From NCBI GenBank assembly GCA_963733195.1, contig CAVTCR010000073.1, forward strand, positions 190,840 through 254,839: a stretch of DNA of 64,000 nucleotides, given 5' to 3'. Shown here one piece after another: positions 48,071 through 50,770 of the stretch. Each line of letters opens with the position of its first letter. Positions within the stretch are counted from its first letter, which is position 1. The position numbers and the translations under genes were made by a program. Source of the stretch: an uncultured delta proteobacterium (GTDB taxonomy: Bacteria > Desulfobacterota > Binatia > Bin18). The notes beneath the pieces were generated by a model, which did not search any database, was not told the DNA's origin, and worked only from the letters and a program-made list of their open reading frames with translations.

Positions 48071-49430
48071 ATGACAAATGTGACGGAGGTCAACGCGCGT
48101 CGCCAGAAATCATTGACCCGCCAGGTCCGCATCGGACGTTTTCTGATCATCACCCAGATGGTCGTACGGATTTACGGCGGATATAAACTCATCCAACTCT
48201 ATGGTCGTTTCATCTCACAGCATGGATTGGACGAACGCTATGCGCGACATCATCGCCGCAGTGCGGAATTAGTTTATCGTACAGCGTTACGCCTCGAAGG
48301 CTGGTTGGTGAAAGCCTGCCAGTTCATCGGTACACGTGCGGATATTCTGCCGCCAGAGTATATTGAAGTACTCTCGCGCCTGCACGACAAAGTCCCGCCG
48401 CGTCCGTTTTCACTCATCAAGCAGCGTATCGAAGAGGAACTCAAAAAGCCGATCGAAGAAGGTCTTTCCCTCGTTTTCTACTGAGCCCATTGCCGCTGCC
48501 TCATTAGCGCAGGTTCACAAAGCATCCCTCAGTGATGGCCGCCAAGTTGCGGTGAAAGTGCAGTATCCTGATGTTGCGGCGCTTGTCGATCTGGATATGC
48601 AAAACATTGCCTTCTTCGTCGAATGGCTAGCGCGTCTGGAGCCGCGCTTCGATTTCCGTTTCGTCATCAAAGAACTGCGTCGCTATATTCCGCTGGAACT
48701 AGATTTTCTCAATGAAGGGAAGAACGCGGAAGCGGTCGGGAAAAACTTCGCCGCGCGGGGAGATGATGTGATCGTGCCGCGCATCTACTGGGAATACACG
48801 ACGAAGAAACTCTTAGTGATGGAGTTTATGGACGGGATCAAGATCACTGAGGTCGGGAAGTTGCGGAGCGCCGGAATCGATACCCGAGCAGTGGCGCAAA
48901 AACTGACCGAGGCCTACTTGCAGCAGATCTTGTTGGACGGACTTTTTCACGCCGACCCACATCCGGGCAATCTTCTCGTCCAGTCTGGACCACGCCTGGT
49001 GTTTCTCGATTTTGGCTTGACCAAAGATTTGCCCGCGGAATTTCCTGCTGAGATGGCGCGATTGACGACCGCGATTGTGACGCAGAATTCCGCAGAGATC
49101 GTCGCCTCGTTCCGTCGCCTAGGGTTTGTGACGAAGAACGGTGGAGATGAGAGTTTACTGGTCCTAGGCGAAGCGATGCTTGGTCACTCAGTGAAAGAGA
49201 ACAAGGCGTATGCTGATCCCGAGATGGTTGAACGCTTCAACAAAGAGATCGATGACGCGATGCGCAAAGATCCGCTTGTTGAAGCGCCGAGTGATTTGGT
49301 CCTGGTGGGTCGAGTGATGGGATTACTCAGTGGAGTTGGGAAGCAGCTGGGATCAGAGGTGAATTTGTTTTCGACGCTTATGCCGTACTTGATCGCAGAA
49401 AATAAGAATCCCGACAGTGTTACGCCGTAG
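48071..49430 (+). CDS. ABC1/UbiB (AarF) family kinase, frameshift near 48460
   Basis: K..QF..TR.DILP.EY, PIAAASLAQVH, VAVKVQYP, ELDF..EG, FHADPHPGN, LDFG. Confidence 0.9.
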
Positions 49431-49466
49431 GGGCGTCCCGCCGGTGAAAGCGGGCTGTCGGGATTC
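49398..49466 (-). terminator. Branched intrinsic terminator
   Basis: 12-bp stem GAATCCCGACAG/CTGTCGGGATTC enclosing two 5-bp hairpins, followed on - by TTATTTTC. Confidence 0.7.
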
Positions 49467-49520
49467 CGGCGGTGCCTGGATGCCTCCAGGGACCACCCAT
49501 AAACATCAGGGTACGTCAGC

Positions 49521-49562
49521 CTAGGAGGCCACCACCTTACACCTCACCGTAATTGCTACCAT
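49521..49562 (-). CDS. 13-aa small ORF MVAITVRCKVVAS
   Basis: ATG directly after AAGGAGGTGATCCAGC; TAG at 49521-49523. Confidence 0.5.
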   Translation of the reverse strand: MVAITVRCKVVAS

Positions 49563-49719
49563 GCTGGATCACCTCCTTCCTCAGCGCACCAACTGCGGGC
49601 CCAGAGTCCGCTCAGCCAGGAACCGATCGCCGAATTATCGGCCCGAGGCGCGGTCCGCTTGCGTCCTGCCGGATTGCAAGAGTCGCAGCGCAAGGGGTTT
49701 GTGTGAACCCGACCTATAA

Positions 49720-49728
49720 ACTATATCA
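49720..49728 (-). promoter_or_regulatory. Extended -10 promoter (TG-A-TATAGT)
   Basis: Matches TGnTATAAT with one mismatch; predicted start at GG 49714/49713. Confidence 0.6.
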
Positions 49729-49795
49729 CTTTATACTCTGAAATCGATGTAAGGTCTAGCCTCTTTAGCGAATCTTTGATCACTGCTGTCCGCTC

Positions 49796-49824
49796 TTGCG
49801 GGAAAAGAGACCGGCCTATATAGT
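49796..49824 (+). promoter_or_regulatory. Sigma70-like promoter
   Basis: TTGCGG-17 nt-TATAGT upstream of ATG 49838. Confidence 0.5.
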
Positions 49825-49837
49825 CCGCCTCACTTTT

Positions 49838-50770
49838 ATGGCGCATTTTCATATCACGGCGGTTTTTGAGACCCGAGGAGCCTCACAGGCTGAGGCTGAG
49901 CGCGTGGCTGCGGCAGCATTCCCTGCTCTGCGTCACCCGCGCATGCATTACTACGAGCACGATACGAGTGGCGGCTTGGGGCCGTATCCTCCGAGCCAGT
50001 CGCTGTACTTCACTACGATCGCTGAGTTCGATGTCGAAGCATACACAGAAGAGAAGGCTGTAGAATTAGCCGAGGATATGCTCGATCGATTCTCAACCGA
50101 TACGATCCATTATCTTGGTCACGGCATTATCCCCGGAGACCGGCGTGTACAACCAGAAGACCGCCACAAATCCCACGAGGAAGAGCATCGACCCTCTTCT
50201 GAGCTAGACGACAAACAGGACGTACAGGAAGAGCAACGCGGCAAAGGCCGTCGCCCTCAGCGCGGACGTGGGCGCGGACGTAAGCCAGGCAGACGAGACA
50301 ATGAGAGTGTCGTAGGTGTCGAGGAGCGAACATCAGAAACAGTGAGGGAAGCCACGAATGTGGCACCTGTCTCCGCTCTTACTGATACGACTCCTCTCGC
50401 GGGGGAATCTGCTGCTGTTCCGCCACCACAGGCGCGCATTGTACGTGAGGCGCCAGTCCCACTAGCTCCTCCTATTGTTGTTGAAGACACGACTCCTCCG
50501 CCTCCCCCGCCGCGTAGTTCGGCAGAAATGCGCGTAACCCTCACTGTTAATCTTCGTGCATCTGAGGTGATACAATCGCACGATCAAGGTGAATCAGGAG
50601 ACGAGGAGCTAATTGCGTTAGCAGTTGCTGAGGCGCGCCGTCGTCACCCGAAGTTGCCAACAGACGTTGCTCCAGACTCCGTGACCTCTCCGTTGCCAGG
50701 GGGAGATCGCCTTATCGCGCTGACCTGGCACTACCAGTCTCCAGTCCCTTCTGCGACAGAGGTAGGATAA
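49838..50770 (+). CDS. Hypothetical protein with a duplicated N-terminal beta-alpha motif and an Arg/Pro-rich disordered linker
   Basis: F....FE....S..EAE..A and F....EFDV.A.TEE.A..LA; RGRGRGR; PPPPPP. Confidence 0.7.
   Translation: MAHFHITAVFETRGASQAEAERVAAAAFPALRHPRMHYYEHDTSGGLGPYPPSQSLYFTTIAEFDVEAYTEEKAVELAEDMLDRFSTDTIHYLGHGIIPGDRRVQPEDRHKSHEEEHRPSSELDDKQDVQEEQRGKGRRPQRGRGRGRKPGRRDNESVVGVEERTSETVREATNVAPVSALTDTTPLAGESAAVPPPQARIVREAPVPLAPPIVVEDTTPPPPPPRSSAEMRVTLTVNLRASEVIQSHDQGESGDEELIALAVAEARRRHPKLPTDVAPDSVTSPLPGGDRLIALTWHYQSPVPSATEVG

Follow-up and report, generated by a model that had tools for sequence, protein, structure and literature searches.

The window analysed here is a stretch of 64,000 nucleotides (nt) from an uncultured delta proteobacterium (GTDB lineage Bacteria; Desulfobacterota; Binatia; Bin18; assembly GCA_963733195.1, contig CAVTCR010000073.1, positions 190,840 to 254,839). 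Its minus strand encodes, at ~49713..49398, a structured RNA of ~316 nt that lies between a convergent ABC1-kinase open reading frame (ORF) and a divergent ORF. An earlier note on this DNA had described it as a self-contained minus-strand unit, which the orientation of both neighbours bears out, and had offered it as a 30S-binding or sequestering RNA or a micropeptide mRNA of a family that it could not name. The family can be named, as the RNA reads as a divergent relative of Ms_IGR-5 (RF02471), and its long Shine-Dalgarno (SD) sequence, tiny ORF and competing helices suggest an RNA gated by the ribosome. Its parts are given below, all on the minus strand; the extended -10 and the CCTGGA hairpin were read from the sequence, the stems of the 5′ domain come from RNAalifold on 21 relatives, and the ORF was obtained by translation.

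49720..49759: promoter region, with a -35-like element and an extended -10
49759-49753: -35-like CTAGACC, kept across an alignment of 25 relatives
49728-49720: extended -10 TGATATAGT, whose TAnAGT -10 is kept across the same 25 relatives
49585..49713: 5′ domain, ~130 nt, GC-rich
49581-49563: SD1, the long SD, AGGAAGGAGGTGATCCAGC as DNA and AGGAAGGAGGUGAUCCAGC as RNA, complement of the 3′ tail of 16S ribosomal RNA (rRNA)
49562-49560: ATG start codon
49562..49521: 13-codon ORF MVAITVRCKVVAS with its UAG stop
49536-49531: GGUGGU, codons 9-11, within the SD-like GUAAGGUGG; 5′ strand of a long-range helix
49518..49530: hairpin GGCC-UCCUA-GGCU, with the stop codon and an anti-SD-like CCUCC loop
49475..49512: hairpins of the 3′ domain, ACCC/GGGU (loop variable) and CCUGGA-GGCA-UCCAGG (loop GGAGG, SD-like)
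49497-49492: local GGUGGU, alternative partner of ACCGCC
49490-49475: the CCTGGA-GGCA-TCCAGG hairpin itself
49468..49473: ACCGCC, 3′ strand common to two mutually exclusive helices
49398..49464: three-way terminator and U tract, with nested stems at 49464-49408 and a T tract to ~49398
Within the terminator: outer stem AUCCCGACAG/CUGUCGGGAU and a pair of inner hairpins, the loop of the first holding an invariant CACC

The extended -10, the SD, the ATG with its 13 codons, the CCUGGA hairpin and the terminator all lie where they had been placed before, and the terminator overlaps the final ~30 nt of the kinase ORF, which ends at 49430.

SD1 is an exceptionally long ribosome-binding site. The genome has two 16S genes with the 3′ end ...CTGCGGCTGGATCACCTCCTTTCT, and against this tail SD1 pairs over 16 nt by Watson-Crick pairs alone or over 19 nt when one G-U is allowed, which is exactly the pairing that had been predicted from typical 16S ends. 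Among the 14,372 GGAGG sites of the 6.9-Mb genome, the two rDNA copies excepted, it has the longest perfect complement to the tail (16 nt), followed by three sites with 14 nt each. The genome contains just three copies of the 14-mer AAGGAGGTGATCCA, two of them antisense in rDNA and the third at the RNA locus, and the predicted energies of the duplexes with 16S are -35.5 kcal/mol for SD1, -14.0 for AAGGAGGUG and -8.7 for GGAGG. The match is far beyond chance. A DNA search of 41 genomes found one copy of the RNA in 30 of them (the window's own genome included; 21 of the 24 in the same family, with class-level matches weaker). The core AAGGAGGUGRUC is kept in all 30 relatives; the only substitutions seen, A>G and C>U, leave the pairing with 16S intact. 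What is kept universally is a complement of ~13 nt, AAGGAGGUGRUCC, which corresponds to the entire single-stranded 16S tail; the CAGC part is local to the window's family, so the proposed reach into helix 45 does not hold as a trait of the RNA family. Within the actinobacterial copies, codons -8/-7 (GGAY) pair and covary (G-C 68, A-U 9) with RUCC, the 3′ end of the SD; part of the extended SD therefore has an intramolecular partner in that phylum.

Throughout the 64-kb window Rfam gave no match at gathering scores. When 49300-49850 was searched up to E = 10, there was no match to 6S, signal recognition particle (SRP) RNA, transfer-messenger RNA (tmRNA), RNase P or riboswitches, in agreement with the earlier note, which had seen no hallmark of the first four. 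The best family at relaxed thresholds, RF02471 (Ms_IGR-5, 'Actinobacteria sRNA'; gathering score 45 bits, model length 184), is itself functionally uncharacterised, so the Rfam comparison that the note had called for turned up no strong match to a characterised family. Model positions 1-184 align to 49586..49399 with 30.3 bits (E 3.9e-5), covering the SD, the ORF and the 3′ domain and leaving out the 5′ domain, and the window locus is the sole RF02471 match in the whole 6.9-Mb genome (E 1.2e-4). The architecture of the model, namely the SD region, a stem spanning the ORF, a stop-codon stem and a nested terminator, is matched end to end. When 19 relatives were compared with the model, 10 matched at E <= 0.05, and one from the same family, L018, passes the cut-off with 46.9 bits. 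Because of the full-length alignment, the sole match in the genome and the relative above the cut-off, the RNA is best read, on sequence comparison, as a diverged branch of the Ms_IGR-5 family that carries an additional 5′ domain.

The two RNAs share a long SD (GGAAGGAGGUGRUCC), a 12-13-codon ORF ending in a stop-codon hairpin, an invariant GUGAGGUGG paired to a downstream CACC strand, a nested terminator and the setting of a stand-alone single-copy gene. They differ in that the window RNA belongs to another phylum, carries an additional ~130-nt 5′ domain and has its SD inside the molecule, whereas in Ms_IGR-5 the SD lies ~10 nt from the 5′ end; the ORF ends in GUG-GUG-GCC-UCC rather than GUG-GCU-GCC-CGC, and the window RNA has extra GGUG and CACC elements. 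Ms_IGR-5 was validated by RNA-seq in Streptomyces lividans and is a transcription unit in S. avermitilis (PMC8079986, PMC8780764), and it is ribosome-protected in Mycobacterium abscessus and M. smegmatis (PMC4974804); the portions available of these three papers give no function for it.

A second Rfam family, CC2171 (RF01867), an alphaproteobacterial small RNA (sRNA) from Caulobacter, was considered and rejected as the family of this RNA, since it scored 15.5 bits against a cut-off of 75 (E 0.51) with the SD alone matching; in the window's own genome RF01867 had no match at E <= 0.01. The CC2171 consensus begins with GAAAGGAGGUGAUCCAG followed directly by GUG, which is the likeness, whereas no GUGAGGUGG core was seen in it, and the two RNAs are probably analogous rather than homologous. 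Northern blots have confirmed CC2171 in Caulobacter and Methylorubrum; the part available of that work identifies neither a function for it nor the condition affecting it (bioRxiv 10.1101/2022.01.24.477521).

Rfam names Actinobacteria as the range of RF02471, and the window copy lies outside it. A pattern scan with one genome per species (AGGAGGTGRTC, 18-42 nt, GTRAGGTGG) returned at least 120 stretches, and the matches listed are mostly from Actinomycetota (Streptomyces, Kitasatospora, Micromonospora, Mycobacterium, Nocardioides, Rhodococcus, Amycolatopsis and others), with many from Acidobacteriota (Terriglobia, Bryobacterales, Blastocatellia, Pyrinomonadaceae), two from Rokubacteria and single metagenome-assembled genomes (MAGs) labelled Thermodesulfobacteriota, Myxococcota, Planctomycetota and Heliobacteriaceae. 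Of 18 loci scanned among these listed matches, 5 pass the RF02471 cut-off, from Mycobacterium, Micromonospora, Streptomyces, Luteococcus and one Blastocatellia. Because the Blastocatellia locus, from Acidobacteriota, does so with 52.3 bits, the range stated by Rfam is too narrow. Within the window's own phylum the core pattern is present in 9 of 401 genomes, 5 of which are among the 14 genomes of its own class, and one class-level relative resembles the MAG labelled Thermodesulfobacteriota. The core common to Actinomycetota, Acidobacteriota, Rokubacteria and the others consists of the long SD, an in-frame start, the tiny ORF, GUGAGGUGG and the stop-codon hairpin. As to the labels themselves, the MAG contig labelled Heliobacteriaceae (L061) and a Blastocatellia locus (L134) share an upstream neighbour (Transglut_core2 + TPR_9) and both carry a Blastocatellia-type RNA; the contig labelled Heliobacteriaceae may be mis-binned.

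The second conserved element is the ORF. All 30 relatives have an in-frame ATG, GTG or TTG 7-10 nt after GGAGG (29 by script, the window copy by eye and translation), opening a frame of 13-15 codons with the conserved end ..C-E-V-V-A-S-stop and an N-terminal half that varies in sequence and length. An in-frame start is also present in 117 of the 120 pattern matches listed, with ORFs of 11-19 amino acids (aa); the copies without one are L046, L079 and L117, the last two of which look like chance matches in long ORFs. The start is thus kept in 147 of 150 copies (30 relatives and 120 pattern matches listed), where random sequence would, by a rough estimate, satisfy the start and frame conditions about 1 time in 8. 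The long SD and the tiny ORF are the conserved heart of the RNA, as the earlier note had held, and relatives keep these and the stems, which was the homology it had asked to see. In-frame start conservation and the published ribosome footprints on Ms_IGR-5 make translation of the ORF likely.

The codons themselves point to an unusual kind of constraint. The 30 BLAST-found relatives have GAGGTGG in 28 copies and AAGGTGG in 2 (AAG being the form in the window and its genus), so that GTG is kept in 30/30 and GAG in 28/30. Across 73 distinct actinobacterial ORFs, in which positions -5, -4 and -3 are partly forced by the pattern, the codons were as follows.

Codon -8: CGG 27, AGG 25, TGG 12, GGG 6 (R, W, G)
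Codon -7: ACT 27, ACG 19, ACA 16, ATG 9 (mostly T)
Codon -6: CGT 58, TGT 11, AGT 4 (R, C, S)
Codon -5: GAG 73/73 (E)
Codon -4: GTG 73/73 (V)
Codon -3: GCT 72/73 (A)

Because first codon positions are free beside fixed second and third positions, and because the same letters belong to a covarying helix, selection looks to act on the RNA and on the act of translation rather than on the peptide.

Two features of the ORF bear on how a ribosome would behave on it. In the internal SD-like motif, GAGG stands 11 nt ahead of the stop codon, so that a terminating ribosome would see it at a spacing (8 nt to the P-site codon) near that of SD1 at initiation (9 nt). At the other end, the full SD1 duplex reaches the base before the AUG and probably could not coexist with placement of the start codon, which suggests a docked state and an initiating state. 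An extended SD-anti-SD pairing described in Staphylococcus aureus likewise continues from the SD towards the start codon and is reported, in the part of the source available, to position or rigidify the mRNA on the platform (PMC13009471); there it comprises two extra bp on ordinary mRNAs, in contrast to the 6-9 extra pairs, the whole 16S tail and the dedicated RNA seen here.

The predicted fold of the window RNA has an energy of -148.4 kcal/mol (z = -4.12), and none of 100 shuffles folds as well. RNAalifold predicted 84 pairs on 21 relatives, 26 of them with compensatory changes spread over all stems, including the GGUC/GACC stem, the 5′ hairpins, the CYUGG/CCAGR hairpin and the three terminator stems; pair 250-266, in a 3′ domain hairpin, changes from C-G to U-A in 2/21. 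The terminator aligns to the nested terminator of RF02471. The stop-codon hairpin is paired in 100% of cells, with a G-C to A-U change in one sequence, and a hairpin at the stop codon is present in every clade examined. An alignment of 25 copies shows the promoter, 5′ domain, SD, ORF and terminator all kept.

A long-range helix joins the end of the ORF to the 3′ domain. It is formed by GGUGGU (49536-49531) and ACCGCC (49473-49468), is paired in 21/21 and changes from U-A to C-G in 3, a change that turns Val into Ala. The SD-like GUAAGGUGG of the window corresponds to GUGAGGUGG in other genomes. Across 83 actinobacterial copies the partner of GGUGGCUGCC is a downstream GGCAGUCACC located just 5′ of the terminator, and pairs 73-210 and 74-209 switch among C-G, U-A and G-C; in Blastocatellia the same long-range helix shows G-C to A-U changes. 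A local helix between GGUGGU at 49497-49492 and ACCGCC changes from G-C to A-U in 3/21, and since both helices use ACCGCC 49473-49468, they exclude each other. The earlier note had suspected a switch at the end of the ORF, and mutually exclusive helices, each with a compensatory change, do exist there. The pairings of GCCUCCU that the note had put forward are possible too, in columns that are invariant. A ribosome passing through the ORF would have to open the long-range helix and so free the anti-SD-like CACC strand. Further contacts are possible on paper, namely kissing between the CCUCC and GGAGG loops and pairing between UCACC and CGGUGA; the columns concerned are invariant, and a loop change in L016 is uncompensated. 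The invariant CACC (UCACC in 20/21) occupies the apical loop of the first inner terminator hairpin (49447-49443), and this UCACC is complementary both to an invariant mid-ORF CGGUGA (49549-49544, minus strand) and to the GGUGA of the SD.

The 5′ domain distinguishes a long from a short form of the RNA. It consists of a GGUC/GACC closing stem around two hairpins, a stem GCC..GGGCCGRY/RYCGGUUCC..GGC and a hairpin GCGG/CCGC, with compensatory pairs in every stem across the 21 relatives. Of the pairings proposed here by the earlier note, the GGUC/GACC stem and the 5′ hairpins covary, whereas the exact CUUGCG/CGCAAG is specific to the window copy and the family forms an equivalent stem in a shifted position. 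R1, a covariance model built for the 5′ domain, was run on 54 loci and on the window's own genome. Eleven of the loci matched at E <= 1, all directly 5′ of the SD: 7/7 own-class relatives (L032 with 87.2 bits, L033 with 76.0, L034-L038 with 22.4-29.4), two Rokubacteria (53.8 and 26.7 bits) and, weakly, one Planctomycetota locus (18 bits, E 0.037) and the Thermodesulfobacteriota MAG (14 bits, E 0.3); the Actinomycetota and Acidobacteriota loci among the 54 gave no match. In the window's own genome R1 has its sole significant match at the RNA locus, with one more at E 0.47, and the idea of a riboswitch reused elsewhere was rejected on that ground. Because R1 is confined to the RNA loci of a few lineages and occurs once in its own genome, the 5′ domain is a lineage-specific addition and not a reusable aptamer. 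The short form, in Actinomycetota and Acidobacteriota, has a promoter with good -35 and -10 elements directly upstream of the SD, so its RNA should start ~10 nt 5′ of the SD, with ACAC as in the Rfam model.

Transcripts of the window RNA are on record. Twenty run entries contain the stretch, 12 of them on record as RNA; together they represent 9 metatranscriptome studies of rhizosphere, soil and ice. Contigs of 4 RNA runs (4 studies) cover 49244-49713, and one metatranscriptome contig of 258 nt equals 49456-49713 with 0 differences; the transcript that the earlier note had asked for is therefore present in RNA libraries. Contigs end at 49713, 7 nt after TATAGT, or at 49703, none from the four RNA runs covers 49714-49950, and depth drops below ~49433. 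Letters resembling an Illumina adapter are joined at 49713 (X11) and at 49703 (X1). Within this comparison of RNA runs alone these ends hint at an RNA 5′ end near 49713; contigs cannot prove ends or levels.

The neighbours of the RNA are not shared among its relatives. Pfam searches of 132 ORFs around 30 loci from all clades gave no recurrent gene neighbour, and the genes downstream are in many cases on the other strand; for these reasons the RNA is a stand-alone gene and not a leader. One Bryobacterales locus (L071:791-1117) has ribosomal protein L31 (PF01197) ~150 nt downstream on the same strand, which is absent in the other 29 loci. Upstream of the RNA in the window there is a plus-strand ORF and then, further off, a minus-strand PanE/ApbA gene. 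The former (324 aa, 49796-50770, plus strand) adjoins the RNA promoter on the opposite strand, has low-complexity charged and proline-rich stretches and gave no match in a Pfam search. On the other side, the ABC1/UbiB-like kinase gene (48071-49430, plus strand) appears split into two overlapping frames: 48336-49430 (364 aa) matches PF03109 with 254.6 bits from profile position 15, and 48071-48484 (137 aa) has no Pfam match. The split could reflect a frameshift, a pseudogene or an assembly error. Beside the 3′ end of the RNA in a class-level relative there is a sub-threshold CsrC match (L032:1310-1367, minus strand; 28.9 bits, cut-off 61, E 7.7e-5).

Other long complements to the 16S tail were seen. 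Six loci of the window's own genome carry a perfect complement of 13-14 nt (GAAAGGAGGTGATG...), at C48:30273(+), C48:30514(-), C70:44178(-), C19:76857(+), C5:9963(-) and C74:132918(-), and in each a TTG or GTG and a very short frame (5-26 codons) come next; two of the six are copies of one another in inverted orientation, ~240 nt apart, and the set may represent a second group of long-SD micro-ORFs. Six Terriglobia copies of the RNA (L052, L054, L070, L072, L078, L096) have, ~200 nt 3′ of the SD, a sequence almost identical to the 16S 3′ tail (GACCACCUCUU), which could pair with their own SD over ~11 nt. SD1 is also the same sequence as a common 16S reverse-primer site and is therefore a potential off-target of the 16S polymerase chain reaction. 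The literature items listed for AAGGAGGTGATCC, judged by title and abstract, looked like genome announcements and 16S-based studies. Among taxon-specific oligonucleotides, a Nitrospira probe had no match and a Geobacteraceae primer matched the 16S gene with 1 mismatch, which is no more than a lead.

Taken together, these results lead us to read the RNA, with moderate confidence, as ribosome-gated, in that its output would be a translation-dependent change of fold or ribosome occupancy and not a peptide. The SD, complementary to the whole single-stranded 16S tail, would capture a 30S subunit, and the start codon 7-10 nt downstream would let the captured ribosome translate 11-19 codons. The last codons, SD-like (GUGAGGUGG), would at the same time be the 5′ strand of the long-range helix that closes the 3′ domain, with the stop codon held in a hairpin, so that each round of translation would open the 3′ domain and the freed anti-SD-like CACC strand would re-pair elsewhere. 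The output might then be ribosome-dependent refolding or ribosome occupancy, the latter perhaps stabilising the RNA as STAB-SD is described to do in the part of that report available (PMC4113751). Conservation, covarying structure, a preserved reading frame, an RNA-type constraint on codons and presence in RNA libraries are all observed.

Several points weigh against this reading. The relatives are kin and not independent, so the counts of conserved frames overstate their statistical weight, and GTRAGGTGG was built into the pattern, which leaves letter invariance unbiased only in the 30 BLAST-found relatives. Codon -7 of the actinobacterial ORFs varies mainly synonymously (ACT, ACG and ACA), which would also fit a degree of peptide-level selection. 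Initiation may be an alternative to the full 16-19-nt pairing rather than a step of the same path. The window copy, at 30.3 bits, scores below the gathering score of 45 and is not a formal member of RF02471. Finally, we infer 30S binding and translation in this organism, as well as the toggling of the fold by translation, and what the switch would put out is conjecture.

Binding of 30S without productive translation is an unlikely alternative. The RNA would be a decoy or carry a 5′ stabiliser, being protected from 5′ exonuclease or withdrawing or shielding 30S subunits and 16S 3′ tails, and the ORF would be incidental. The predicted duplex of -35.5 kcal/mol, which by reaching the base before the AUG should hinder start-codon placement, is in line with this, as is the short form, whose SD would lie ~10 nt from the RNA 5′ end behind a strong-looking promoter. 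There is also a precedent in STAB-SD of the Bacillus thuringiensis cry3A mRNA, in which, as far as the available text goes, a long complement to the 16S 3′ end binds 30S for a purpose beyond normal protein expression (PMC4113751); 30S binding is likewise predicted for the window RNA. However, STAB-SD, which blocks 5′-3′ decay and so lengthens RNA half-life, by definition lacks a start codon, directs no initiation and sits in the 5′ untranslated region of a protein-coding mRNA, whereas the window RNA has a conserved start and frame and no protein gene after it. An incidental ORF would not keep a stop-free, in-frame start at SD spacing in 147 of the 150 copies across phyla (120 of them pattern matches listed) while its length changes, and pure sequestration, one of the two functions first proposed, accordingly fits poorly. 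As each RNA would occupy one 30S, a sink would also need very high abundance, a quantity that contigs cannot measure.

The other function first proposed, a dedicated micropeptide mRNA in which a functional 13-aa peptide is made at very high levels from the long SD, we consider quite unlikely. The same conservation of start and frame speaks for it, together with the E-V-[AV] residues kept across phyla and the synonymous variation at codon -7 in Actinomycetota. Against this, the E-V codons themselves show no synonymous variation (GAG and GTG in every actinobacterial ORF of the table, GTG in all 30 BLAST-found relatives), adjacent codons differ in their first letter, so that the residue changes (R/W/G; R/C/S), and these letters belong to a covarying helix. 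The ORF is free in its N-terminal half and in its length (11-19 aa), and the last two residues depend on the clade, tracking the local hairpin; the peptide consensus is ..TVxCEVVAS in the window's family versus ..RTREVAAR in Actinomycetota. The constraint on codons and helix makes the micropeptide the weaker option.

A leader or attenuator, in which translation of the tiny ORF would decide between termination and read-through into a downstream gene, is very improbable and is largely refuted by context. A short ORF, alternative hairpins and an intrinsic terminator do resemble ribosome-mediated attenuators such as the trpL/rnTrpL leaders, where, in the sources as far as available, translation of a tiny ORF rather than its product re-pairs overlapping segments 5′ of an intrinsic terminator. 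Unlike those leaders, the window RNA has no regulated downstream gene and no regulatory codon run, and none of its alternative helices uses a terminator stem. The next gene in the window is convergent and overlaps the terminator, which leaves no same-strand downstream gene to regulate, and across the 30 loci of several phyla the neighbours differ, with many downstream genes on the opposite strand. Chance similarity or a decayed rRNA-operon fragment is refuted, for although the plus strand carries GCTGGATCACCTCCTT, the 16S 3′ end, similarity to 16S ends at 16 nt, and the locus is single-copy, syntenic, kept over ~316 nt, covarying and equipped with its own promoter and terminator.

The ribosome-gated reading thus attaches to a family that was already known, in Rfam, as an orphan actinobacterial sRNA. 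In the literature we found no prior account of the family's presence in several phyla, of a long form bearing a 5′ domain, of an ORF conserved in frame but indifferent to the peptide, or of the SD/anti-SD-like helix that translation would open. Searches on Ms_IGR-5, CC2171 and extended SDs with small ORFs returned no description of a long SD, micro-ORF or function for the family, within a coverage that left out the original 2013 Ms_IGR-5 paper and its supplements, which could hold data on the 5′ end or the ORF.

What the finding means is, first, that the Ms_IGR-5 family extends past Actinomycetota to Acidobacteriota, Rokubacteria, a Thermodesulfobacteriota-like class and single Planctomycetota and Myxococcota MAGs. 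More speculatively, and as a proposal that we put forward only tentatively, these RNAs may form a multi-phylum class of ribosome-gated RNAs, in which an abundant RNA pairs with the complete 16S tail and the ribosome runs a short, peptide-indifferent 'test lap' that unzips the SD/anti-SD-mimic helix; such an RNA might report or regulate the pool of 30S subunits that are free and competent for translation, or act on the 16S 3′ end as a checkpoint or shield. If so, the checkpoint or shield could act, for example, in final 3′ maturation, hibernation or nuclease attack, and the class would represent a new interplay between RNA and ribosome that is neither mRNA, tmRNA nor classical base-pairing sRNA. 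An orphan sRNA would thereby become a testable hypothesis, that of a dedicated bacterial RNA to sense, hold or protect small ribosomal subunits.

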